Source: a virus
Virus genome (UHGV): UHGV-0072281
Length of the DNA: 64,000 nucleotides
Strand: one strand, 5' to 3'
Shown here: piece after piece, positions 4,419-56,607 of the stretch
Layout of the letters: each line of letters begins with the position of its first letter
Numbering within the stretch: position 1 is the stretch's first letter
The notes under the pieces: model-generated
What the model saw: only the letters and a program-made list of their open reading frames with translations
The model's database searches: none
What the model was told of the DNA's origin: nothing
Translations under genes and position numbers: made by a program

Positions 4419-5219
4419 ATGAGCAATTTACTTACTTTCCGCATGTCTGGTCAAACGTTAATGCAGATTGACGAGTACGAAAAAGAACATTTCGCTAAAC
4501 CGTCCAAACTGTTAGAACGTTGCTTAAAGGTTATTCCAGGCGGCGAGCACTGTCAGCTAGATTTCGTCATGGCGTCTTCTGCTGACAAAACGGTCTCTGT
4601 TATCTACACGGTTGACGGAGTACAGGGCCATCGCTTATTACCGATTGAAGAAAAAGGTTCTTTGGGTAATTTGTTGTTCTTGCACGCAATCACGACTGCG
4701 GTAGTGACGGGAGCACTGGGAGCGCAGTACGGTTTCGCCTATTGTTATTTCTACGCACAGAAGTTGGCGAATGCGGTAGTTCCAGGAGAACCAGAAACGT
4801 ATCCGAAGTATATCGAACGTTTGCTTCCGACGCATTTTGCTGAGTCTGACGACTATGAGTTCAATGCTTTCCGTTTCACGATGATTGGCGAAGCACGCGA
4901 TCCTGAAAACACCATTGCGTTACGTGCTGTTGTTCGTTACGCAGTAATTTCGTCTGACAGCGGAATGGCAAGCAACTTCAACGAAGTGTTCCCGGTTATG
5001 CAACTAGGTCCGTATATCACGTTTAACGCGTATGTACCGTTTACTTGTCAGTTAATCGGCCCGCAGGATAATGATTCTATCCTCCCGATTACTGAAGAGA
5101 AAGGTCTACATATTCGTGATGCCGTAGAAGTCATCAACGATAAACGTTTTACGATCTCATCGAAAAGCGGCATCGCCGATGAAGAACTTGCGGTTGTGAA
5201 CAAAATGCAAGTGATGTAA
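4419..5219 (+). CDS. hypothetical protein (~266 aa)
   Basis: ATG at 4419 with AAGGA 8 nt upstream (track start 4413 is a TTG); followed by terminator hairpin. Confidence 0.55.
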   Translation: MSNLLTFRMSGQTLMQIDEYEKEHFAKPSKLLERCLKVIPGGEHCQLDFVMASSADKTVSVIYTVDGVQGHRLLPIEEKGSLGNLLFLHAITTAVVTGALGAQYGFAYCYFYAQKLANAVVPGEPETYPKYIERLLPTHFAESDDYEFNAFRFTMIGEARDPENTIALRAVVRYAVISSDSGMASNFNEVFPVMQLGPYITFNAYVPFTCQLIGPQDNDSILPITEEKGLHIRDAVEVINDKRFTISSKSGIADEELAVVNKMQVM

Positions 5220-6706: not shown

Positions 6707-6729
6707 GGGGTGTGACAGCACCCCTTTTT
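6707..6729 (+). terminator. rho-independent terminator
   Basis: ggggtg/cacccc stem followed by TTTTT. Confidence 0.55.
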
Positions 6730-39129: not shown

Positions 39130-39590
39130 ATTGCTTCGAATCTAAAGAAATTGTTGAGTTGTTTAAACAGCGTGAGAAAACCTCTTTCCGTGACTTGTAC
39201 GATTCTGATTATCGTCCACTATTTGCGGTATTGTTGAAACTGGATAAAGAACCCGAAATCGCGTTAGCAGAAGTCCAACACCATCATGTCAGTTTCGTGT
39301 TAACTGAAAACAAGGAACGTTGGGTAGATGACATACTGAACCGTATCGCGCTTTTGGAAACGCCACATCGCTGGGAAGTGGTTATTCAGAAATCGTTGTT
39401 CCCGCGTGAAGACATTTTCAACAACTATCGTCCGAAACAATATTACAACCACGATGGGTCGCCAAAACGTGCTTTCCTGGCACCCCAGCATTTCGTAACC
39501 TACGTAACGTTGCGTTACAAAGACACCGTGGTGCCGTTTGACACCTATTTGGAAATGCGTGAGATAATTTTAGGGAAGAATCCGATATGA
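39126..39590 (+). CDS. hypothetical protein (~154 aa)
   Basis: ATGA overlap with upstream stop; GGAGA upstream. Confidence 0.5.
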   Translation: MNCFESKEIVELFKQREKTSFRDLYDSDYRPLFAVLLKLDKEPEIALAEVQHHHVSFVLTENKERWVDDILNRIALLETPHRWEVVIQKSLFPREDIFNNYRPKQYYNHDGSPKRAFLAPQHFVTYVTLRYKDTVVPFDTYLEMREIILGKNPI

Positions 39591-40069
39591 TTCAATTTTG
39601 TGTTGACGCAGAAAGATTGGCGTCATTTAAAGAGCGTGCTCAGTTTGCAGTTAAAAACGGTTACATTGAGAAAGGTGTTCGTGATACTTGTAAACTAATC
39701 AACGACCATCCGCACCTGGCGACAATGTGGAGCTGTGAAGGCCACGGTATGTATTCTAAGTCGCCTGGAATTCTGCACATTGTTTTTGCAACAGATGCTA
39801 TTGGAAGCCAGCTTCCAATGCAGATTACGTCTGAACTTGCAAAATGCGATCTGCCCAATTTCTGGAATCTTAGTTTGCGTCGCCTTTTTTTACCTGACGA
39901 ATTTTCGGATTTGGTATATCTTGAACCCGATTACGGGTTAAACACAGACGACACTTCCTACTGGGCTTGGAGAGTCGGATACATGCGCTTGATTAATCGT
40001 CCTGCGTTAGTTGAAGCACGACAAGCTCTTTATAAAGCATTTCACACAGTATTAGTTGAGAATAAATAA
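39587..40069 (+). CDS. hypothetical protein (160 aa)
   Basis: ATGA overlap with upstream gene. Confidence 0.5.
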   Translation: MIQFCVDAERLASFKERAQFAVKNGYIEKGVRDTCKLINDHPHLATMWSCEGHGMYSKSPGILHIVFATDAIGSQLPMQITSELAKCDLPNFWNLSLRRLFLPDEFSDLVYLEPDYGLNTDDTSYWAWRVGYMRLINRPALVEARQALYKAFHTVLVENK

Positions 40070-40761
40070 TGGCTACCAAGCAAAAGAAACCTCGTAACAA
40101 AAAGTATAACCCGAAAGCAGCTGCTAACCGTACAGCACACGCCATTGCTGAAAATGCGCTAAACCGCATTACTTTCGTCGGTAGCTCTATTCGCCCCATC
40201 GGCCCGTATGCAGGACGCGGTTTCCAGTTTACAACGTCGCCGCGTATGCGCATGGCAGCCACCGATATGTTAATCGGTGGTTTGTTTGATGAACCGCGTA
40301 ATTGGAAGCTATGGGTTGCGCATTTGTACGAGATGGATAATGGCGTACAAGCAGAAACCATCGTTGCAACACTTGACGATTATACGTTGGGTGATTTCTG
40401 TCAACATGGTGATAAAATCATTAAGTCGCTACGTGAGACAGAAGAAAATTACTTCGGTTATGCTTTTGTTGCTGCACCTAACGAACGTTATGATTTCGAC
40501 CAGGGAGAAGAGCGCTTACTGGAAAACTTCATGCATTCTGGACTGTTAGACAAATCCTTACACTTACCTGAAGAAGAACTGGTGGTTACGCGTAAGGATA
40601 TGGTAACGTTGCTACTAGCCGATCGTGGTCGTTTTGATATTACTGAACCCCATGTACGTAAAGTACAGAAACTCGTGGATAAAGTAGACGAAACTGACCT
40701 GGACACTAACGAAGTCGCAACACGACTTCAGTCTGTGGTAAACCAGATTGAGGATTACTAA
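40069..40761 (+). CDS. hypothetical protein with basic N-terminus (230 aa)
   Basis: N-terminal KQKKPRNKKYNPK; coupled start. Confidence 0.5.
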   Translation: MATKQKKPRNKKYNPKAAANRTAHAIAENALNRITFVGSSIRPIGPYAGRGFQFTTSPRMRMAATDMLIGGLFDEPRNWKLWVAHLYEMDNGVQAETIVATLDDYTLGDFCQHGDKIIKSLRETEENYFGYAFVAAPNERYDFDQGEERLLENFMHSGLLDKSLHLPEEELVVTRKDMVTLLLADRGRFDITEPHVRKVQKLVDKVDETDLDTNEVATRLQSVVNQIEDY

Positions 40762-42526: not shown

Positions 42527-42572
42527 CCTACCGCCCGATTCTATGGGCGGTAGGTGTTTTATTTTTTTTTTT
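42527..42572 (+). terminator. rho-independent terminator
   Basis: cctaccgccc/gggcggtagg 10-bp stem followed by a T-rich tract. Confidence 0.75.
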
Positions 42573-42588: not shown

Positions 42589-43152
42589 GTGGCCACATCT
42601 TACGTACCTGATTTGAGTCTGACCTCAGCAGAGCTAGTGGTCGCTTTAATCAATCATGATAACGGGTTACAGCTTACGCTAAACGAAATCCGTATTAGCG
42701 GAACCGTAACAAACCCATCACCAACAACTTCGCGTCGTAACACCATCACCGAAATCAGTAAAATCAGAAAACCGGATGGTGCGTCTGTTGTGGTCTACTA
42801 CGACAGACTTGACGCCGATGAGGTATTAACGTCTGAACCTATTTTGATTTCGTTAGACGGTACCGAAGCGAATATCCGTGACGTTCTGAGTGTTGTAAAT
42901 GAACACTGCGGTACGAACTTACAGCCTGAAGACTTACGCGTTTCTGATATTACTTCAGGTAACGATCCTATTGCCGTTAACGTTGCCGACGATTCACCTG
43001 CGTGGATGAATGCGTTTATGGTGACGTTATTTGATAAAACTGAGCGTGCGTTAGCGAACGAAGAAGATGAAATCTTCTGCATCGGTGACGATAGCGTTCT
43101 TACCTTTGAGGTTCCAGATGACGACTCAGCTGAAGAAAACCCGACTACATGA
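42589..43152 (+). CDS. fibre-associated protein, paralogue 1 of a four-member family
   Basis: GTG start with GGAGGG upstream; shares PDLSLTS, VNHD, NLQ-x-DL and C-x-GDDSVLTF with the 48883 gene; precedes fibre 1. Confidence 0.55.
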   Translation: MATSYVPDLSLTSAELVVALINHDNGLQLTLNEIRISGTVTNPSPTTSRRNTITEISKIRKPDGASVVVYYDRLDADEVLTSEPILISLDGTEANIRDVLSVVNEHCGTNLQPEDLRVSDITSGNDPIAVNVADDSPAWMNAFMVTLFDKTERALANEEDEIFCIGDDSVLTFEVPDDDSAEENPTT

Positions 43153-43357
43153 ACTTGATGATTTTTACCGGTAATGGAGGACAAAGCAAACTTTTATCAA
43201 GACTTAGCAAACCAAAATCATGAAAACGCGAAATTGAACATCGCTTTCACGTTAGAAGATGATGTATTAAAACCAGGGCAATAGTAACCCGCTTATAAAA
43301 AATTGGGGGGTAAACTACTCTCCTGATCTTTTAGCTCCCGATAGAGAATTAAATATC

Positions 43358-46300
43358 ATGGCTAAAGCGGTAAAGAAAATTCGTTTACACGATTTACGTC
43401 CATACACCGGTGATATCGGTGAAGGCGTTTTACTTTTCTCCAAGGATGAGAAAGATTATAAGTTACCAGTCCGTGAGGTTATTGCAGATATTGACACCGT
43501 ACGTAATGCGGTGGCTGATGCACAAACAGCAGCAGCACAATCACAAGAAGCTGCAACTCAGGCTACGCAAGCAAAAGTTTTAGCAGAAGCAGCAAAACAA
43601 CAAACTGACACAGTTGCGGCAACGGTTGCACAACAAGCGCAAACCGTAACCGAAAAAGCAACAGAAGTCAGTACAAAACATACCGAAGTGTTAGCCGCGA
43701 AAACGGCGGTAGACGCTCAGGCTGTGTCCATTAATGAGAAAGCACAAGCGGTAGCGACAAGTGAGGCAAACGTCACACAAGCAGAAACTACCGTTACGAA
43801 GAAAGCAGAAACTGTTGCCACACAAGCCGGGCGGGTCGAACAGTCACTTACGGCAGTTAACGAAGCTGTTGCGTCGGTAGAGTCGTCGAAAGCTGCCGTA
43901 GAAGCTAAAGCAACACAAGTTACTTCAGACAAAGAAACCGCAGAGAATGCGGCAACTCGTTCTGAGGCAGCCGCTAAGCGTGCGGAAGAAATCGTTGCTC
44001 AAGGTACTGTTGATGCAACAACGACCAGTAAAGGTGTCGTTAAACTTAATAATACCTTAACCAGTGACTCTGTTACTGAAGCGGCTACACCGTCAACGGT
44101 TAAGCAGTTAAATGATGAATTGCAGTTAAAAGCAAACCGTCACAACCCAACTTTTACCGGTGTGGTAAAAGCACCGACTCCTGCTTCGGATTCTAACGAC
44201 ACGAGCGTCTCAACGACTGCATGGGTACGGCAAGCGATTGCTGAATTAGTGGACTCTTCACCCGAGACGTTAGATACGTTATCAGAAATTGCAGCCGCGT
44301 TAGGAAACGATCCTAACTTTGCGACAACGATAACGAACCAACTAGCGGGTAAACAGCCGTTAAGTCCGTTACTGACAGCGATTGCCGCAGTCACCACCGC
44401 TGCAAACAAACTCCCTTACTTTACCGGTAGTAATCAGGTAGGGTTAGCGGATTTCACCTCGACTGCTCGCGAATTATTAGCGAAAGGGTCGACGGCCGAT
44501 ATCATCAGCTTCCTGGGGTTGAAAACCACCGTTGATAAAGCTGCGGGCGCTATGCAACGTAGTTCTAACGGTGCCGATATTCCCGATAAAGCCACCTTCG
44601 CGAAGAACATCGGGTTGTCAGCAGAGACGTACCTGAAGTTTAATGGGGAGATGCCAGTAGATGCAGACATCAACACCTTCGGCCCGGTTGAAGCGTTTAT
44701 GGGCGTTTGGTCTAAAGCCACGTCTACGAACGCAACAGTTGCAAAGAATTTTCCAGAAGAAAACGCAGTTGGTTGTTTAGAAGTTTTCAAAGCGGGTAAC
44801 TACAGCGGAAGTCAACGTTTTACTGTACGTAACGGTAACATCTATACACGTCATCTTACTGCTGCATGGAATGGGACAAACGGTCCTTGGTCAGAATGGC
44901 GTAATGTTGCTGGTTCCGCCAGAACGTTGAACGAACAAAATAATCTGAATGACTTGGGTGGTGAGGCCGCACTAGGTGTTTGGAGAAACAGTTCGAGTAC
45001 ATTAGCAACAACCGCGCTGAATTATCCTGAAGAAGGCTCTTTTGCCCAGGGCGTATTAGAAGTTCTCAAAGGTGGCAACTATAGTTACACACAACGCTAC
45101 ACTACCCGCAGAGGCAATGTATACGTTCGTTGTCTACAAGCCACGTGGGACGCTTCAAACCCGCAATGGGAAGAATGGCGCTGTGTTGGTCATCAATCTG
45201 TCAGCACATATTTCGAAGGCGATCTCGACACGTTAACTTCGCCTAACCGTTATAGCATTACTGATAAAGCGACAAACGTTCCTTTAATCGACGGTACTAA
45301 AATTATCGGTATCTTGGACGTCAGTCGTCGTTTTGATAACATTAGTGTCGAACAAAAATTCACCTCGTTTGGTTCTGGGAGCAAAACTACAGGGCGTATT
45401 TTCACACGTGTATTCTCCGGTCAATCAAACGGTAAATGGAGTGAGTGGCGAGAGGTTTTCACCTCGTATTCACTTCCGTTAGTTTTAGGTATCGGTGGGG
45501 TTGCAGCTAAGGTTGACCCGTTAGACTGGCAAACCTACGACTTCGTTCCTGGACAGATGTTAACGACGCCGTTGAACACCATGAAAAACATTCCTGCAGG
45601 AATGGATTGGGGTACTATTGACGGTAACTTAGTTAACATCCTTGTAGGGCCGTCTGACGACACCGGTACTGGTCGGAGTATGCTGGTTTGGCGTAGCACA
45701 GTGTCTGTTGCTAACTATCGCTTCTTTGCGGTACGTATCGCTGGTGAGAAGGGTAGTCGTACGATTACGCCGCGTCAGATGCCTGTGTTGAACGCAGCGC
45801 ACACCTGGTCAGAGAAACAAACGTTCTCTAAAGGTTTAGCGGGTGAATTAACCGGTAATGCTTCTTCAGCAACGAAACTTCAAACAGCCCGTTTAATCGG
45901 CGGCGTAAGTTTCGACGGCACCAAGGACATTGCACTCCCTGGCGTTAACGCACAAGGTACGCAGAACACCACTGGGAATGCGGCTACCGCAACCAAATTA
46001 CAAACGGCTAGAAATATCAACGGTGTGAAATTCGATGGCTCTGGAGACATCAATATCAACACCTTAGTAGGTCGTGGACGTGTCACTGCTCTGGCTGGAT
46101 CAAACAAAGGTACACCTGGTATCCAGATGTACGAGGTTTACAATAACGGTTATCCGACCGCGTATGGTAATTTACTGCATTTAGGTGGTGCTACTGCCGT
46201 AGGTGAAGGTGAACTACTGATCGGTTGGTCTGGTACCAGTGGCGCACACGCACCTGTTTATATCCGTAGTCGTCGAGACACTACAGATGCGCCGTGGTCA

Positions 46301-47674
46301 GAATGGGCGCAAGTTTATACTGCACGAGACAGCATTCCGGGTGTCAACACCACAGGTAATCAGGATACGACCGGAAACGCAGCTACCGCTACAAAACTTA
46401 AAACCACACGTAAAATAGGCGGGGTTAATTTTGACGGAACGGGTGATATTAACCTACCAGGTGTAAACCAGCAGGGCAACCAGAACACAACAGGTAACGC
46501 TGCGACAGCGACTAAACTCCAGACTGCCCGAAATATTGGTGGTGTGGCTTTCGATGGTACTAAAGACATCAGTTTACCTGGGGTAAACCAAACAGGGAAT
46601 CAGTCAACTACGGGGAACGCTGCTACTGCAACGAAGTTGCAGACAGCAAGAAGTATCAACAACGTACCATTCGATGGTTCGAAAGATATTACTCTAACGC
46701 CAAGTAATATCGGTGCGGCTGCCTCCTCAATGACTTGGTTAAATACCGGGGATAATGGTGCAGCGCTTAGTACAGATTCTTTTATTACTTTGTTGCAAAA
46801 TAACGGGGCTTTTAATTCCAGAACTTGGATAGCCCGATGCTCTTGGGCGTATGCTCAAAATGGCGTGATTCCAGATAGTGAAACAAAGTGCGGTACTATT
46901 CCACTTGCAGGCTCAGTTATTGAAGTTGTAAGTTTTGGGATGACCAACTACACCATTCGTATCACAACCCCTACGACGACATCGGTTAGCGGAGCAAAAA
47001 CCAACTCTGAGTTTATTTATTGCTATAATGGTAAAGATTATTCTCCAGGTTGGCGACGGCAGTATAACACTGTTAATAAACCGTCTGCTAGTGACGTTGG
47101 CGCTCTACCAACTGGTGGCGGTACTGTCAGTGGCGATTTGACGGTTAATGGTAAACTGGTTACGAAAAATGCCGATTTTCGAATTGCTTACGGTAGTTAC
47201 GGTTTCATTTTACGTAACGATGGCAATAGCACCTATTTCTTAGTAACAGCATCTGGTCAAGCTGCAACGGGTTCCTGGAATAACTTACGACCGATGTATT
47301 TTAGCAACTCTACCGGTCAAGTAACCTTCGGGCACAACGTTACTGGTAACGGGAACGGTTCGTTTAACGACGTACAGATTCGTTCTGACCGTCGTAACAA
47401 ACGTAATCTGGTGAAACTGGATAATGCATTAGACCGTTTAGAACTCCTTACCGGGTATCTGTACGAAGTTCAACATCCTGACGATGGATGGAATACTTCG
47501 GTAGGCTTAATTGCCCAGGATGCATTAGTTGCGTTACCTGAATTGGTTACTGAAGACGATGACGCTATTTCTGGTGAAAAACGTTTACGTTTGAACTATA
47601 ATGGTGTTATTGCGTTGTTGGTAGAGGGCATTAAAGACCTTCGTCGTGAGCTTAAGGAACTCAAGGGGAAATAA
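43358..47674 (+). CDS. long tail fibre protein (gp37-like distal fibre) with C-terminal intramolecular chaperone (peptidase S74-type) domain
   Basis: 1438 aa; Ala/Gln-rich coiled-coil N-terminal region; five copies of TGNAATATKLQTAR-I-GV-FDG-KDI; three ~70-aa tandem domains; C-terminal SDRRNKRNLVKLD...YNGVIALLVEGIKDL matches the self-cleaving chaperone signature. Confidence 0.85.
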   Translation: MAKAVKKIRLHDLRPYTGDIGEGVLLFSKDEKDYKLPVREVIADIDTVRNAVADAQTAAAQSQEAATQATQAKVLAEAAKQQTDTVAATVAQQAQTVTEKATEVSTKHTEVLAAKTAVDAQAVSINEKAQAVATSEANVTQAETTVTKKAETVATQAGRVEQSLTAVNEAVASVESSKAAVEAKATQVTSDKETAENAATRSEAAAKRAEEIVAQGTVDATTTSKGVVKLNNTLTSDSVTEAATPSTVKQLNDELQLKANRHNPTFTGVVKAPTPASDSNDTSVSTTAWVRQAIAELVDSSPETLDTLSEIAAALGNDPNFATTITNQLAGKQPLSPLLTAIAAVTTAANKLPYFTGSNQVGLADFTSTARELLAKGSTADIISFLGLKTTVDKAAGAMQRSSNGADIPDKATFAKNIGLSAETYLKFNGEMPVDADINTFGPVEAFMGVWSKATSTNATVAKNFPEENAVGCLEVFKAGNYSGSQRFTVRNGNIYTRHLTAAWNGTNGPWSEWRNVAGSARTLNEQNNLNDLGGEAALGVWRNSSSTLATTALNYPEEGSFAQGVLEVLKGGNYSYTQRYTTRRGNVYVRCLQATWDASNPQWEEWRCVGHQSVSTYFEGDLDTLTSPNRYSITDKATNVPLIDGTKIIGILDVSRRFDNISVEQKFTSFGSGSKTTGRIFTRVFSGQSNGKWSEWREVFTSYSLPLVLGIGGVAAKVDPLDWQTYDFVPGQMLTTPLNTMKNIPAGMDWGTIDGNLVNILVGPSDDTGTGRSMLVWRSTVSVANYRFFAVRIAGEKGSRTITPRQMPVLNAAHTWSEKQTFSKGLAGELTGNASSATKLQTARLIGGVSFDGTKDIALPGVNAQGTQNTTGNAATATKLQTARNINGVKFDGSGDININTLVGRGRVTALAGSNKGTPGIQMYEVYNNGYPTAYGNLLHLGGATAVGEGELLIGWSGTSGAHAPVYIRSRRDTTDAPWSEWAQVYTARDSIPGVNTTGNQDTTGNAATATKLKTTRKIGGVNFDGTGDINLPGVNQQGNQNTTGNAATATKLQTARNIGGVAFDGTKDISLPGVNQTGNQSTTGNAATATKLQTARSINNVPFDGSKDITLTPSNIGAAASSMTWLNTGDNGAALSTDSFITLLQNNGAFNSRTWIARCSWAYAQNGVIPDSETKCGTIPLAGSVIEVVSFGMTNYTIRITTPTTTSVSGAKTNSEFIYCYNGKDYSPGWRRQYNTVNKPSASDVGALPTGGGTVSGDLTVNGKLVTKNADFRIAYGSYGFILRNDGNSTYFLVTASGQAATGSWNNLRPMYFSNSTGQVTFGHNVTGNGNGSFNDVQIRSDRRNKRNLVKLDNALDRLELLTGYLYEVQHPDDGWNTSVGLIAQDALVALPELVTEDDDAISGEKRLRLNYNGVIALLVEGIKDLRRELKELKGK

Positions 47675-47677
47675 AGG

Positions 47678-48220
47678 ATGGCAGTTGTTGAAGTTCCAGG
47701 TTATATCGGTTCTTCTGCAAAGGAAGTTACTGGCGAAGAGATGATGTCTGAAGCGATGACCGAACTCGGCGTTGTCGTACCAGGGATGATGTCTGAAATG
47801 GCAGGTCTGTCAATGGGTTGCTATGTAACGTTTGAGGAGTGGACTACCGTTGAAGATGGCCTTGATGTTCGATGGATCGGTGCGTCTACTTCCGAGTGGA
47901 CAGACGGCTACGGCAAACCGGTCGTTAAAGGAAAAATATCCGGGGCGAAGATGTTTGGTTTGAATGTCGAAGCGGAGCTGATCGGAATGCACTATAAAAA
48001 GCATCCGCGATTCCCTTGGTCAGTCGAACTAAAATGTCGCTGCGAAAAAGGTAGCAATTTCAGTTATACGTTAGACGGTGTAAGCGGTTCTGTATCGAGT
48101 GATGGTACCGGTACAACCGGAATGCAAATTCGTACATTCAAATTTAACAATTTCAGTGCAGCATTTAAGGAAAAGATAGAGCAAGTTGGTGTCAAGATGC
48201 CAACATCACGTAAATATTAA
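47678..48220 (+). CDS. gp38-like tail fibre adhesin, copy 1
   Basis: N-terminus MAVVEVPGYIGSSAKEVTGEEMMSEA...MMSEMAGLSMGC closely matches the conserved N-terminal attachment domain of T2-type gp38 adhesins (recalled from memory); directly follows the fibre gene. Confidence 0.55.
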   Translation: MAVVEVPGYIGSSAKEVTGEEMMSEAMTELGVVVPGMMSEMAGLSMGCYVTFEEWTTVEDGLDVRWIGASTSEWTDGYGKPVVKGKISGAKMFGLNVEAELIGMHYKKHPRFPWSVELKCRCEKGSNFSYTLDGVSGSVSSDGTGTTGMQIRTFKFNNFSAAFKEKIEQVGVKMPTSRKY

Positions 48221-48227
48221 AAGAGTA

Positions 48228-48253
48228 GCGTAGGGGTGACCTCCCCCCTACGC
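48228..48253 (+). other. hairpin followed by a G10 tract in place of a T run
   Basis: gcgtagggg/cccctacgc stem; its C6 run could alternatively pair with the downstream G10. Confidence 0.5.
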
Positions 48254-48264
48254 GAATCTTAACA

Positions 48265-48274
48265 GGGGGGGGGG
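48265..48274 (+). repeat. homopolymeric G10 tract, 3 nt upstream of the adhesin-2 start codon
   Basis: Ten consecutive G at -12 to -3 relative to ATG 48277. Confidence 0.9.
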
Positions 48275-48276
48275 TA

Positions 48277-48780
48277 ATGGCGGTTAACTCGGGTTGGGTC
48301 GGTTCTTCGGCTAAGAGCGAAACGGGCGAACAGTGGATGAGCGCTGCGGGTGCCAAATTGGGATTGGGTAAACCTTTTATGATGAGTCAAATGGTGGGAC
48401 GATCTATGGGCTGTAAAATTTCAACTGCTGCATATAGTGATTCTTTAGGTAAGAAATGGGGTGCTGTGGGATCAAGTTGGCCATTAACTCAGAAAAATCA
48501 GGGAACCATTCAAAACGCGGGTAACTGCGGGGTGGGAACTTTAGTAGGTATAGAGTTACAATTAACGACGGTAGTTGCCAACGCAACGCCTACTCTAGCG
48601 GTCTATTTACAAGGCGGCAGGGCCTCTAACATCACTGCAAATCTAGGCGGTAACACTTGTGCGCTGACCTATCAGCAGGTTATTAATGGCCAACATTATT
48701 ACTGGACCAATAACATTAGTGCCGCGTTCCAAAACGTGATGAAATCGACCGGTACACTAAGAGATTTCAAAATTAGTTAA
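48277..48780 (+). CDS. gp38-like tail fibre adhesin, copy 2 (divergent C-terminal domain)
   Basis: N-terminus MAVNSGWVGSSAKSETGEQWMSAA...MMSQMVGRSMGC paralogous to copy 1; Gly/Asn/Thr-rich C-terminal region; flanked by G10 tracts. Confidence 0.55.
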   Translation: MAVNSGWVGSSAKSETGEQWMSAAGAKLGLGKPFMMSQMVGRSMGCKISTAAYSDSLGKKWGAVGSSWPLTQKNQGTIQNAGNCGVGTLVGIELQLTTVVANATPTLAVYLQGGRASNITANLGGNTCALTYQQVINGQHYYWTNNISAAFQNVMKSTGTLRDFKIS

Positions 48781-48817
48781 TTATTTTTCAAACGAATGTG
48801 TTTGAAAACGTAATCGA

Positions 48818-48827
48818 GGGGGGGGGG
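48818..48827 (+). repeat. second homopolymeric G10 tract
   Basis: Ten consecutive G, 55 nt upstream of the GTG start at 48883. Confidence 0.9.
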
Positions 48828-48882
48828 TGAAGTGTTTTTAGCCAACATTTTATGTCTCCCCAACCGTAGGAGGTAAATATAC

Positions 48883-49395
48883 GTGGAACAATTCACGCCA
48901 GATTTGTCGTTAACTTCACTTAACATGGTTATTTCACTGGTTAACCATGACCTCCAACTTGACTTGCAAGAGAATGAGGTCGAAGTCAGTGACGTAAAGA
49001 CCAGTGACGAAATGGAACGTGACACCACTGCTGTTGTAAAGATAAAACGTTCTGGTAACAGAACGTTACAAATCTACTACAACCGTTTAACTGCAGAGCG
49101 GTGGTTAAACCGACAACCTGTACTTGTAAAAGTAACAGGCGAAGGGTTTAATGCGCACGATCTAATCGAATCCATCAACACCGTTTGTGGTGCTAACTTA
49201 CAAACCGACGATTTAACCGACCAGTCGTTCACGGTGGGTAAAGACGCGGTAATATTTAGCATCGCTCCGAGTTCCCTCGGCTACAAAGGTCAGTTCTCCG
49301 TGGTGGTTTTCGGTCCAGATGAAACACCGTGTGGTATCGGTGACGATTCTGTCGTGCTAACGTTTGACAATAAAATCTTAACCTTTGGAGAGTAA
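48883..49395 (+). CDS. fibre-associated protein, paralogue 2
   Basis: GTG start with AGGAGGT upstream; paralogous to 42589; precedes fibre 2. Confidence 0.55.
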   Translation: MEQFTPDLSLTSLNMVISLVNHDLQLDLQENEVEVSDVKTSDEMERDTTAVVKIKRSGNRTLQIYYNRLTAERWLNRQPVLVKVTGEGFNAHDLIESINTVCGANLQTDDLTDQSFTVGKDAVIFSIAPSSLGYKGQFSVVVFGPDETPCGIGDDSVVLTFDNKILTFGE

Positions 49396-49398
49396 TAG

Positions 49399-51531
49399 AT
49401 GAGTCAGCCAATTGGAAAGAAGCGTATTCATGAGCTGGAAACATTTGAAGGTGAATTAGCAGGAGTCGTTCTGCTGATGTCCAAAGACGACAAAGAATAT
49501 AAACTTGACGCATCTCGTTTACAAAACGATAAGCTGTATCTAGCTTGCGGTACACCTTTTCCTAAACTAGTATTCCAAAACGATAAAACACTTTACAATA
49601 TTAATCCGTACAGTGACTACGACACTTATGAAGTTTCTGCAAATAAAGGTCGGGTATCTAAAGTTACTCGTGCCACATTTAGCGTGATGGCTGGGTCTTT
49701 ATCGGTTGGCGAGAAAATACAACTTACAGTTACGCGCAATGGCGTACCATTTCAATTTGAAGTTACCGTATCGGGACCGCGTATCACTACTCCCACTTGG
49801 ACACTTCCAGTTAATGGCGGTAAATTGAGCGTAACGCCAACCTTTGAAGTAACTGACTATCAAGCCTATCCATATACCAACACCGGTAATCAACAGACCG
49901 CTGCCAGTTGGGAAATTTCCACTAGTGAAGATTTCTCAACTACAGTTTTCCAATCACTGAACGACACCGTCAACAAAACAACCATCAGTATCCCAGAAGG
50001 TAAGTTAGAACCAGGTCAAACTTACTACGCACGTGTTCGCTTCCATAACGCAGTAACCGAAAGTGATTGGTCCGTTGTTCAATTCTCAGTCGGCGAAGCA
50101 TTTATTCAGCGTCCTGCACTGATCGAACCCACCGTAGACATGGTGTTAAGCGCATCGAATATTACACTTAAAACTGATGTTTTTAAATGGGTCGGTGACG
50201 AACCTGCGGAGACCCACGTATCGACTGACTGGCAGGTTACTTACGGTAGCAACGATTTTGACGAAATGAATAATCTCGTTAACCAATTAGAAGATGCGAT
50301 TAACCTGACGTCGCTTAAATTACCGTCTGATCGGGTTTACGTTAATAACAGTTATCGTGCACGCGTGCGTTTTCGTGGTGAGAGAAGCGTCAGTGATTGG
50401 TCTGAACCTTTAACGTTCCGTGTAAGTCGCGGGAACGTACCAACAAGTGAATTCCAGTCAATTTCTGCTTCTGGATTTACAGGTAATTCAATCGGTGCTG
50501 AGTTGGCATGTACTGACGACGGTTTGCTGTTTGCTGCTACTGGCGTTGCACAGAAAGCGAAATTCTTACATATCTTTAAGAAAGACTTCCCGTCTTACAA
50601 CAAAGTTGCCTCTTTAACAGCTGCTACTGAGGTTGACGCAGACAGAGATGGTCGCTGTCCGGTCAGTATGTCAGCCGACGGTAAGATTATTGTTGTCGGT
50701 GTTAGCGCATCTAAAGCTAACGAAGACCACGGCGAAGTTATCGTTTACCGTAACCCAGATAACGCTGAGTGGAGTACAATCAACGGAATAACTTTAGCGG
50801 GATTACCCACAGAAGGGTTCCATGGCCTTGCAGTAAAACTGTCAAAAGACGGCAATCGTTTGATTGTGGGTAACGGTACGAAAGTGCTGTCTATGTATTC
50901 CAATACCGATCAATTTGCTACACGTACGGCTGTGTCGCCGACACTAAGTGCCGAAGACGCCACTTGTGGTGGTATTGGTAGCATTGCAATGTCTGAAGAC
51001 GGTAACGGTTTAGTGCTTGGCGAAACTAACGGAACGAAATTCCACGTACTGGCTTGGGAATCGGATAGTTGGGTGACTAAGGCATCTATTACACCAAAAG
51101 ACTTGACTGAGAAAGCAACGATTAAAGTCGCTGCTTCTTCTGACTTGTCTACGATTCTTGTTTCTGTAGTTGAGACACACAAATACTACGTTTACAAGAA
51201 AACCGGTGATAGTTGGTCTCTGTTCCAAACCTTGGATTATACCGAACTGGATTACTCCATTACTTCTACCCGTTACCCGACGGGAGACATTAATGTTGCG
51301 CCTTCCGGAAGCTGGTTAATTTTCGGTATGGTGGGTTCGTTGGGTTCTATTTTCGAATTTCGTAATAGTACCTACCAACGACAAAATAGCATTTACGGCA
51401 GTAGTCTTAGCGATCCTGAGAATTACCACTTCTATACGTCACAAGCCATCAGTGCACAAAACGATTTGTTCGTCGGTGCTGATGTTAAAGAAAGTGCTTC
51501 GTACTTCCCACAAATCAAAGTTTACATGTAA
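49399..51531 (+). CDS. second tail fibre or receptor-binding protein (710 aa)
   Basis: N-terminal ~45 aa homologous to fibre 1 (KKRIHELE...GVVLLMSKDDKEYKL); two tandem domains ending Y-ARVRF...SDWS; C-terminal repeated S-x-DG-x-x-IVVG blade-like motifs. Confidence 0.7.
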   Translation: MSQPIGKKRIHELETFEGELAGVVLLMSKDDKEYKLDASRLQNDKLYLACGTPFPKLVFQNDKTLYNINPYSDYDTYEVSANKGRVSKVTRATFSVMAGSLSVGEKIQLTVTRNGVPFQFEVTVSGPRITTPTWTLPVNGGKLSVTPTFEVTDYQAYPYTNTGNQQTAASWEISTSEDFSTTVFQSLNDTVNKTTISIPEGKLEPGQTYYARVRFHNAVTESDWSVVQFSVGEAFIQRPALIEPTVDMVLSASNITLKTDVFKWVGDEPAETHVSTDWQVTYGSNDFDEMNNLVNQLEDAINLTSLKLPSDRVYVNNSYRARVRFRGERSVSDWSEPLTFRVSRGNVPTSEFQSISASGFTGNSIGAELACTDDGLLFAATGVAQKAKFLHIFKKDFPSYNKVASLTAATEVDADRDGRCPVSMSADGKIIVVGVSASKANEDHGEVIVYRNPDNAEWSTINGITLAGLPTEGFHGLAVKLSKDGNRLIVGNGTKVLSMYSNTDQFATRTAVSPTLSAEDATCGGIGSIAMSEDGNGLVLGETNGTKFHVLAWESDSWVTKASITPKDLTEKATIKVAASSDLSTILVSVVETHKYYVYKKTGDSWSLFQTLDYTELDYSITSTRYPTGDINVAPSGSWLIFGMVGSLGSIFEFRNSTYQRQNSIYGSSLSDPENYHFYTSQAISAQNDLFVGADVKESASYFPQIKVYM

Positions 51532-52101: not shown

Positions 52102-52105
52102 CACG

Positions 52106-52147
52106 GTAGCAGGGGCTAAGCCCCTGCTACCTTTTTCTTTATTTTTT
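52106..52147 (+). terminator. rho-independent terminator
   Basis: gtagcagggg-ctaag-cccctgctac hairpin followed by a long T-rich run. Confidence 0.8.
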
Positions 52148-52148
52148 C

Positions 52149-52192
52149 TCAGATATATATTACCTAGAGGAGAGTGAAATTTACATTCACTC
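52149..52192 (+). promoter_or_regulatory. conserved phage promoter motif plus hairpin (gagtgaa/ttcactc)
   Basis: Copy 3 of TCAGATATATATTACCTAG; directly after a terminator. Confidence 0.55.
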
Positions 52193-54352: not shown

Positions 54353-54432
54353 GCCGAAGATCATTTCCGTAAGTATTAAACAGGGGGATTTACGTCCCCT
54401 CAACACAGAGCAAACCCCTAAAGGAGCATTAA

Positions 54433-56254: not shown

Positions 56255-56525
56255 AACAGTTGTATTTCGTAGTAATGGTGATGTGGTTTTGTATCGTGGT
56301 AAGAAACGTATTCGTACGTTAGAATACCGTGAAGCAAAACGTTTTGTTGAAGAGTGTGCATGGTTAATGCATTACGAAGGGAACTATCGTGCTATCTTAG
56401 AAGCTCCGCGTTTAGAACGTGCGGTTGCACAGATGGCAATAGGTAATCCTAAGAACTGTTACCTGGCCCGTAAGCCAAAATACTTACAGCGTCTTTCGTT
56501 AGGCAGCTTTATTGCTGGATTTTAA
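56244..56525 (+). CDS. small hypothetical protein (~93 aa)
   Basis: ATG overlaps upstream stop. Confidence 0.4.
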   Translation: MKRETVVFRSNGDVVLYRGKKRIRTLEYREAKRFVEECAWLMHYEGNYRAILEAPRLERAVAQMAIGNPKNCYLARKPKYLQRLSLGSFIAGF

Positions 56526-56536
56526 TAAAAATAATT

Positions 56537-56578
56537 TCAGATATATATTACCTAGGTGAGAGTTCAGTTACTCTCACT
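56537..56578 (+). promoter_or_regulatory. conserved phage promoter motif plus hairpin (gtgagagt/actctcac)
   Basis: Copy 4 of TCAGATATATATTACCTAGGTGAGAG. Confidence 0.55.
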
Positions 56579-56607
56579 TAACCAAAACCATTTTAGGAGC
56601 ATATACC

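Follow-up and report, generated by a model that had tools for sequence, protein, structure and literature searches.

Organization of the fibre locus

We analysed a 64,000-nucleotide stretch of the virus genome UHGV-0072281 (the window; coordinates refer to it, and features lie on the + strand unless stated otherwise), in which the gene for an accessory gp38-type tail fibre adhesin, here called adhesin-2, is bracketed by two uninterrupted runs of ten guanines. The adhesin-2 gene (48277..48780, stop codon at 48778-48780) encodes 167 aa and has a Pfam match to the fibre-docking domain Gp38_N (PF21721) of 73.6 bits against a cut-off of 25. Upstream of the gene, tract 1 (48265..48274) is followed by TA and then by the ATG at 48277. 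Downstream, tract 2 (48818..48827) begins 37 nt past the adhesin-2 stop codon and ends 55 nt before the GTG start codon of a DUF7941 gene. The order along the locus is DUF7941, fibre 1, adhesin-1, hairpin HP1, tract 1, adhesin-2, hairpin HP2a, tract 2 within hairpin HP2b, DUF7941, fibre 2 and DUF4376, and the whole forms a single unit between canonical terminators at 42527-42572 and 52105-52140. The interior of this operon holds no terminator and no copy of the promoter-like motif TATATTAC.

An earlier reading of the same DNA (the original prediction) had placed G10 runs at 48265-48274 and 48818-48827 around an adhesin gene, with a hairpin before each run. The runs, the adhesin identity of the gene that they bracket, and the two hairpins (HP1, 48228-48253; HP2a, 48785-48808) are all borne out. 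Tract 1 does sit in the ribosome-binding region just before the ATG, where it appears to be an expanded Shine-Dalgarno (SD) sequence; however, the spacer measures 2 nt (TA) and not the 3 nt that had been given.

Counting homopolymers across the 64 kb showed that, tracts 1 and 2 aside, no G run in the window exceeds 6; there is one G6 run, and no C run is longer than 6. All G runs of at least 6 fall within the fibre locus, and every long run has its Gs on the sense strand. For this strand, ~0.009 runs of at least 10 Gs would be expected (P(G|G) ~0.21, ~11,800 G runs), so that two G10 runs at a distance of 553 bp are far beyond chance, as had been claimed. The GC content of the window is 44.2% and not ~46%. 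Both tracts are intergenic and outside any open reading frame (ORF), with no in-frame start codon upstream of tract 1. The concern that they might be assembly artefacts is removed by their recovery in more than 10 independent assemblies. In this phage, hairpins with arms of G4-5 and C4-5 are a generic element between genes (13 of the 16 found are intergenic), and the G10 tracts are extreme expansions of this common element, confined to the two leaders that flank adhesin-2.

Length variation of the tracts

Tract lengths were compared among independent assemblies that encode exactly the same proteins as the window, and among diverged relatives. Contig L165 (JGI 3300045988; 20,543 bp) has 0 substitutions relative to the window, the sole difference being a tract 2 of G9 instead of G10, and the same lone G9/G10 difference sets L159 and L162 apart from the window over 6.5 kb. 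Likewise, in a different lineage, L168 (GCA_044191855.1) and L169 (Logan SRR30609158) have 0 substitutions between them over 3.5 kb, G9 vs. G11 being the one difference. Over all contigs, tract 2 is G6 in L004, G8 in L163, G9 in L005, L159, L162, L168, and L170, G10 in the window, L003, L006, and L158, and G11 in L169, L171, and L175; its length is thus not invariant across relatives. For tract 1, three samples have G10 and sample ERR526064 has G9. By comparison between assemblies, tract length mutates faster than bases are substituted by orders of magnitude. Three Logan contigs (L160, L166, and L167) start or stop inside a G run.

One role that the original prediction had considered was slipped-strand phase variation. 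This is supported at the DNA level, where tract length is the sole difference over 20.5 kb and 3.5 kb and ranges from G6 to G11, but not in its classical form of ON/OFF frameshifting, as the tracts are non-coding.

Hairpin HP1, its inversion, and tract 1

HP1 (48228..48253) has the form GCGTA-G4-TGACCT-C6-TACGC (GCGTAGGGG, loop TGACCTCC, CCCCTACGC) and is homologous to a hairpin in the 5' untranslated region (5'UTR) of Stx-phage adhesin genes. The arrangement of HP1, spacer, G10, and ATG as a whole aligns with that 5'UTR (GTGGGGTGACACTCACCCCACGCATTCAGAAGGGGGAGATGAGATG), and the position that aligns with tract 1 is occupied in the Stx-phage homologues by an ordinary GAAGGGGGAG SD. Judging from this alignment, tract 1 arose from a G-rich SD that expanded specifically in this lineage.

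In the predicted minimum free energy (MFE) fold of the window leader, all ten Gs of tract 1 are paired with the C/U-rich strand ACCUCCCCCCU (CCUCCCCCCU) in the 3' part of HP1 (48239..48249), which buries the SD to within 2 nt of the AUG. The original prediction had suggested this alternative pairing of the C-rich arm, with occlusion of the ribosome-binding site, and it is recovered both as the MFE fold and in the ensemble. Partition function calculations for the window orientation gave HP1 formed at 98-100% when tract 1 has G8 or fewer (mean unpaired probability of the last six Gs, 0.51), at 13% with G9 (0.07), and at 10% with G10 (0.08). Because the predicted ensemble switches between G8 and G9, the natural tract 1 lengths of 9 and 10 would lie just above a sharp fold threshold.

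The orientation of HP1 itself varies between samples. The window, JGI 3300045988, and ENA ERZ27239574 all carry GCGTA-G4-TGACCT-C6-TACGC, whereas sample ERR526064 has GCGTA-G10-AGGTCA-C6-TACGC in both the MEGAHIT (L158/L164) and the Logan (L160/L166) assemblies. The ERR526064 core is the exact reverse complement of the window core (minus-strand reading GCGTAGGGGGGAGGTCACCCCTACGC) with four additional Gs and two additional Cs, so that the flip yields a third sense-strand G10. Between the retained GCGTA...TACGC arms, TGACCT is replaced by AGGTCA with all four of the substitutions that an exact reverse complement needs. The window orientation would be the ancestral state, because it is collinear with the Stx-phage hairpin, and the flip bears the apparent signature of spacer inversion between inverted repeats by template switching during replication. 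It is hardly the work of an invertase, since the arms are only 5-11 bp long. HP1 lacks the long repeats and the segment of at least 100 bp of an inverton, and no recombinase is implicated, although no search for recombinase genes was made. Neither the homologous Stx-phage hairpins nor HP2a showed loop flips.

In the predicted ensemble, the flipped HP1 is a self-contained stem of 11 bp that is formed at 100% and leaves the SD free at every tract 1 length. The suggestion of an RNA structural switch has computational support only, with the predicted ensemble flipping between G8 and G9 and the naturally flipped hairpin predicted to lock the SD free.

Tract 2 and the DUF7941 leader

Two hairpins follow the adhesin-2 gene. 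HP2a (48785..48808) is AT-rich with a 9-bp stem (TTTTCAAAC / GAATGT / GTTTGAAAA); a compensatory A-T to G-C change is seen in relatives, and L006 lacks the hairpin. Tract 2 itself is predicted to be the 5' arm of HP2b (48819..48861), a 17-bp hairpin in the leader of the second DUF7941 gene, in which UCUCCCC pairs with seven of the Gs, a further G is bulged, and another joins an inner 10-bp stem. HP2b was present in all relatives with the DUF7941 gene downstream and had a z-score of about -4 in four of them. Its outer G:C/U stem persists despite a diverged interior in L171 and L004, beside an unrelated flank in L006, and also in L175. Changes in the 3' arm are from C to U opposite G (UCUCCCC, UCUCUCC, UCCCCC), which produces G.U pairs that are tolerated in RNA and not in DNA. 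Taken together, these features point to HP2b as an RNA structure under selection. The computed stem energy is -16.0 kcal/mol at G6, -19.3 kcal/mol at G8, and -23.3 kcal/mol at G9, and is flat beyond G9; the observed tract 2 floor of ~9 Gs, with free variation from 9 to 11, fits this saturation. HP2b could serve in mRNA processing, stabilisation, or pausing between the fibre modules. The T run in its loop also differs between contigs (T7 in L168 and L169, T5 in the window and L170).

From its sequence context, tract 2 is part of the leader of the DUF7941 gene that follows it, and all relatives conserve it. Past the adhesin gene, L006 is unrelated to the window up to AATC-G10 and near-identical to it from there on. 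Even L175, with an adhesin of only 61% identity, has HP2a, a G11 tract, and the hairpin. The G tract is not a general feature of DUF7941 leaders, as SPN3US and SPAsTU have an ordinary terminator before the homologous gene. We also considered tract 2 as an anti-anti-SD element that frees the DUF7941 ribosome site, and found this unsupported, since the opening energy is flat from G3 to G11. A mini-ORF past the tract (GTG at 48832 to TAA at 48876) was rejected: its start codon is ATG or GTG depending on the genome, two of three substitutions in it are non-synonymous, and T7 variants cut it to 3 codons.

In the low-coverage ENA contig L171, the adhesin ORF lacks the usual stop codon and enters a G11 tract (1048-1058), at the end of which stands TGA. 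The upstream flank of that tract (CCCCTCCAACCCTTAACC-G11-TGAAATG) resembles the flank of tract 1 in the window (CCTCCCCCCTACGCGAATCTTAACA-G10-TAATG).

Tandem adhesin genes

Adhesin-1 (47678..48220, 180 aa) also has a Pfam match to Gp38_N (43 bits, same cut-off). The two proteins are 30% identical overall, with the docking domain common to both, and the glycine-rich C-terminal receptor-binding domain of GP38 (PF05268) was matched by Pfam in neither. Tandem adhesins are common among the relatives: in L004, L005, L006, and L175 a canonical GP38 (PF05268) comes first and a gene of the adhesin-2 type second, PF05268 being found in the first adhesin of L004, L005, and L175. Adhesin-1 is absent from L003 and L167-L171, which have the adhesin-2 type only, and our IMG/VR search returned no relatives of adhesin-1. 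Compared with L003, the window has an insertion of 599 bp that comprises HP1, tract 1, and, from roughly codon 4 onward, adhesin-1; it is bounded by ATGGCRGTT microhomology at the start codons of both adhesin genes.

The first ~150 nt of adhesin-2 (48277-48429), the part that codes for its Gp38_N docking domain, are 85-89% identical to tail fibre adhesin/Gp38 genes of Stx phages (E. coli/Shigella Stx prophages) and of phage CMS-2020a. In the GenBank phage collection, the only DNA-level matches to the window were this 5' end and a short promoter-like element. The pattern suggests that temperate lambdoid phages and the jumbo phage from which the window derives have recently exchanged the adhesin docking module by horizontal transfer.

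Interpretation of the G tracts and alternative explanations

Our tentative reading, to which we assign a probability of roughly 0.45, is that the G runs are hypermutable non-coding contingency loci that act through leader RNA structure to tune the amount of adhesin-2 relative to adhesin-1, with tract 2 held at nine or more Gs for the sake of its stem. In this model, slippage-prone G runs in the two intercistronic leaders around the accessory adhesin gene, all within one late fibre operon, would each supply one strand of a G:C/U helix in the mRNA. A tract 1 of at least nine Gs would out-compete HP1 for the C/U-rich strand and occlude the ribosome site of adhesin-2, and a tract of eight or fewer Gs, or a flipped HP1, would leave that site free. 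Polymerase slippage, together with inversion of HP1 by template switching, would give rise to sibling phages that make different amounts of adhesin-2 and adhesin-1. Both adhesins carry the same fibre-docking Gp38_N domain, and the locus would diversify receptor recognition. At tract 2, selection would keep at least nine Gs for the stem and tolerate longer variants. The pairings and the G8/G9 threshold are those predicted by RNA folding; from them we infer the effect on expression and the benefit in host range.

A stronger form of the model would be a two-part, non-coding stochastic switch, in which slippage of the poly-G SD across G8/G9 and flipping of the hairpin decide whether adhesin-2 is translated, such that one burst contains mixed receptor specificities without frameshift, recombinase, or retroelement. 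We consider this form doubtful.

Several observations weigh against a regulatory role of the tracts. The predicted difference in opening energy at the adhesin-2 ribosome site is small, ~1.3-1.5 kcal/mol, so that a several-fold effect is more plausible than strict ON/OFF control. A change in tract 1 length leaves its 3' end at the same distance from the ATG, and tract 2 length has no predicted effect on the downstream ribosome site. Tract 1 and HP1 are confined to this lineage, which permits no covariation test, and the flipped HP1 comes from one sample only, though two assemblers recover it. The length variation is that between assemblies, and part of the G9/G10 difference could be homopolymer miscalling. 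Finally, the tracts could be merely expanded arms of generic intergenic hairpins.

This last possibility amounts to a neutral by-product: once past the slippage threshold, a G-rich SD and the G arms of ordinary intergenic hairpins would have expanded and persisted harmlessly in non-coding RNA, their varying length being of no consequence to the phage. Such an origin, which we regard as somewhat unlikely but as a strong rival of our reading, would agree with the G4-5...C4-5 hairpins that are standard between the genes of this phage, with the alignment of tract 1 to an ordinary SD in the Stx-phage homologues, and with the small predicted energetic effects. The T11 run of the upstream terminator varies too (T9 in L166), and replication within a phage nucleus, a property of this phage family, may let phage DNA escape host mismatch repair, which we also count in favour of neutrality. 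Nonetheless, of 33 intergenic gaps, just the two leaders on either side of adhesin-2 have long runs. Decay or interruption would be expected of neutral tracts, whereas tract 2 has remained an uninterrupted G9-11 in ~10 diverged lineages, some with unrelated flanks. In addition, the natural lengths match the computed saturation of the HP2b stem (G9) and the switch threshold at tract 1 (G8/G9). It seems improbable that the length differences are sequencing or assembly errors at real tracts, each strain having one fixed length. A gap of 2 nt (G9 vs. G11) in otherwise identical sequences is hard to obtain by consensus error, clearly diverged lineages differ in length from 6 to 11, and MEGAHIT and Logan agree on both the flipped HP1 and the G9 of tract 1 in the same sample. 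Errors of this kind would be consistent with the rise of Illumina indel errors at homopolymers of ~10 nt, with the weakness of some contigs (L171 has a coverage of 2.8 and L163 is 1.3 kb long), and with contig breaks at G runs, which are typical of drops in coverage or quality.

Another role that the original prediction had raised is that of recombination boundaries of an adhesin cassette, with the G-tract hairpins as conserved linkers for the exchange of adhesin and fibre modules between phages. Mosaic junctions do lie at or beside the tracts: homology of L006 to the window begins exactly at AATC-G10, L004 diverges right after the G...C hairpin, the adhesin-1 insertion ends 2 nt past tract 1 at the ATGGCRGTT microhomology, and the 5' end of adhesin-2 matches Stx-phage genes at 85-89% identity in an otherwise unrelated genome. 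However, the two tracts are of different history and do not form matched cassette ends, the junction of the adhesin-1 insertion is the start-codon microhomology and not the tract, and no variant with adhesin-2 deleted between the G10 repeats was seen among the recovered assemblies. As linkers would also leave the strict sense-strand placement of G and the G.U-tolerant 3' arm unexplained, we give this reading little credence. Most improbable is coding frameshift ON/OFF switching in this genome, of the kind found in the receptor-binding genes of Campylobacter Fletchervirus. The tracts of the window lie outside ORFs, with no in-frame start to feed tract 1; the mini-ORF past tract 2 is not conserved and acquires a stop codon by the T5-to-T7 change; and the antisense ORFs over the tracts are shifted by natural length variants and absent in relatives. 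What speaks for frameshifting comes from relatives. The adhesin ORF of L171 runs into tract 2, and in L005, a 225-kb relative, a G8 run (4994-5001) extends from the G of the ATG of an adhesin-2-type gene into its first codons, such that G7 would lead to an immediate TAG and G9 to a stop after 12 codons. The L005 adhesin is thus a candidate for a classical frameshift phase-variable gene; L004 has G5 at the position of this run.

Other candidate elements

HP1, HP2a, and HP2b were rejected as intrinsic terminators, as none has a T run after its stem on the + strand; read on the minus strand, HP1 has a weak T-rich tail. The antisense ORFs mentioned above (48192-48356 and 48777-49028, minus strand) were likewise discarded. 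For G-quadruplex formation, which was also considered, the number of G runs in the window orientation is too small. Rfam returned nothing relevant for the region, and no shared promoter motif was found upstream of the G runs. The leader element was not found in GTDB genomes, and IMG/VR yielded no extra copies of it. A metagenome scan with the degenerate pattern GAAANCGTAATCGNGGGG gave at least 119 chance matches and no relative.

Among the generic intergenic hairpins of the phage, those at 6707, 7295, 7398, 16457, 28226, 52112, 54383, 59591, and 61591 have G4-5/C4-5 arms, some with T runs in the manner of terminators. The hairpin at 54383 (GGGGGATTTACGTCCCC) shares a ...TACGTC(T)CCCC 3' arm with the tract 2 hairpin.

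Genomic context of the phage

By sequence comparison, the window appears to be part of an uncultured SPN3US-like jumbo phage of ~225 kb; its relatives in IMG/VR are contigs of 225,000 and 224,831 bp. The host is probably an enterobacterium. Sequences of the phage are present in human-gut metagenomes and in Salmonella assemblies, and adhesin-2 homologues were found in Salmonella and E. coli assemblies, including S. Typhimurium contigs of 171,779 and 224,826 bp.

The upstream end of the fibre operon is marked by a canonical intrinsic terminator with a GC hairpin and T11 (42527..42572). The T11 run (42562-42572) is T9 in strain L166, so that long homopolymers other than G vary between strains too. 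The first DUF7941 virion-protein gene follows (42589..43152, 187 aa; Pfam PF25613, 71.5 bits), and then, in the 5'UTR of fibre gene 1, a G6-UAAACUA-CUCUCC hairpin (43305..43323) that holds the only G6 run of the window. Fibre 1 is a long tail-fibre gene (43358..47674, 1438 aa) with matches to Pfam PF03406, PF21446, and PF13884 and a C-terminal Peptidase_S74 chaperone domain. Downstream of tract 2 come an AGGAGG Shine-Dalgarno and the second DUF7941 gene (together 48868..49395, with the GTG at 48883; 170 aa), whose product shares 29-36% identity with virion structural proteins from three jumbo phages, SPN3US, SPAsTU, and Asesino. The second fibre gene (49399..51531, 710 aa) has an N-terminus like that of fibre 1. 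The operon is closed by a canonical terminator (52105..52140), after which a TATATTAC promoter-like motif lies at 52156.

Each fibre gene has a DUF7941 gene of its own before it (42589-43152 and 48883-49395), and the two fibres have an N-terminal motif in common, which suggests that the phage has two parallel modules of DUF7941 plus fibre. In L004, a 644-aa protein has the DUF7941 domain fused to its C-terminus.

The TATATTAC core occurs five times in the window (5390, 28007, 32267, 52155, and 56523-56585), and at least four of the occurrences are intergenic. We take it to resemble the early promoters of phiKZ-type phages. The last occurrence belongs to an intergenic element of ~60 nt (56523-56585; GATATATATTACCTAGGTGAGAGTTCAGTTACTCTCAC) that is 86-99% identical to intergenic sequence in jumbo phages of Erwinia and Salmonella; in several of these phages, the genome has 3 copies. 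A tRNA as the cause of this match was rejected, as the element is not a tRNA. Elsewhere, nearly all of the 151 substitutions relative to strain ERR526064 (L166) are concentrated in ~1.3 kb at 39278-40582, and the rest of the 10.5 kb compared is near-identical; from the sequence, this interval looks like a recombined mosaic patch.

Comparison with known systems

Known routes to receptor-binding diversity in phages are invertases, diversity-generating retroelements, and frameshifts in coding polyG or other homopolymers. If our reading is true, the G tracts would add a fourth route, in which hypermutable repeats set the ratio of alternative adhesins via leader RNA structure, in a human-gut jumbo phage of the Salmonella/E. 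coli type. This would be relevant for predicting and engineering the host range of therapeutic phages, and it would caution against treating the length of homopolymers and the orientation of hairpins in phage assemblies as noise, as both can be biology. Were the tracts neutral, they would still offer a clean natural gauge of how unstable homopolymers are in nucleus-forming jumbo phages.

Mu Gin and P1 Cin are dedicated recombinases that invert kilobase segments between long sites and thereby swap coding exons (van de Putte 1980, via PMC12823448). The HP1 flip is similar in that a DNA inversion beside alternative receptor-binding genes could alter host specificity within a population. Unlike those systems, the flips here span 6-16 nt between arms of 5-11 bp, and only leader RNA structure would change. 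The flip matches spacer inversion by template switching, in which one multinucleotide event turns a short spacer into its exact reverse complement between short inverted-repeat arms (PMC8604942; PMC8794818). HP1 in the window and in ERR526064 differs in precisely such a spacer replacement. In contrast to the sporadic events of those reports, a G/C-rich asymmetric core has here moved between strands beside a ribosome site, with expansion of G6 to G10 and of C4 to C6.

In T2, T4, and other phages, homopolymers of at least 6 nt slip often and give heterogeneous progeny, and a few of the loci are intergenic (Gomez, Barrick and Waters, bioRxiv 10.1101/2025.10.21.683753). What that study demonstrated is reversible frameshifting in ORFs (agt, rIIA), and no mechanism was given for the intergenic loci. 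The runs described here differ in being far longer than the others of their genome, in being restricted to one locus, and in lying within predicted RNA helices. In Campylobacter Fletchervirus, according to a secondary account, hypermutable polyG tracts of G7-11 lie within receptor-recognition ORFs and act by frameshift (Sorensen et al. 2021, Cell Rep 35:109214, via PMC12823448, bioRxiv 10.1101/2025.10.21.683753). As in those phages, uninterrupted G runs of at least 7 (G10 twice; G9-G11 in relatives) occur here at receptor-recognition genes, with lengths that vary between close relatives. The benefit proposed for Fletchervirus is phenotypic diversity in host recognition, and by analogy we propose the same. 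However, our tracts are non-coding and located in intercistronic leaders, the hosts are Enterobacteriaceae, and the phage is an SPN3US-like jumbo phage.

The leader of Helicobacter pylori tlpB contains a hypervariable G-repeat that pairs with the C/U-rich small RNA (sRNA) RepG, and repeat length grades translation (PMC8295292). Tracts 1 and 2 likewise are variable G-repeats in mRNA leaders. A C/U-rich pairing partner is predicted for each (CCUCCCCCCU and UCUCCCC, respectively). In H. pylori, the partner is a trans-acting sRNA and the effect has been shown experimentally, whereas here the partner would act in cis, as the arm of a neighbouring hairpin, and the effect is a predicted one. By analogy, tlpB/RepG is the closest mechanistic analogue of the G tracts around adhesin-2, and the polyG tracts of Fletchervirus are their closest precedent, with the T2/T4 loci next.

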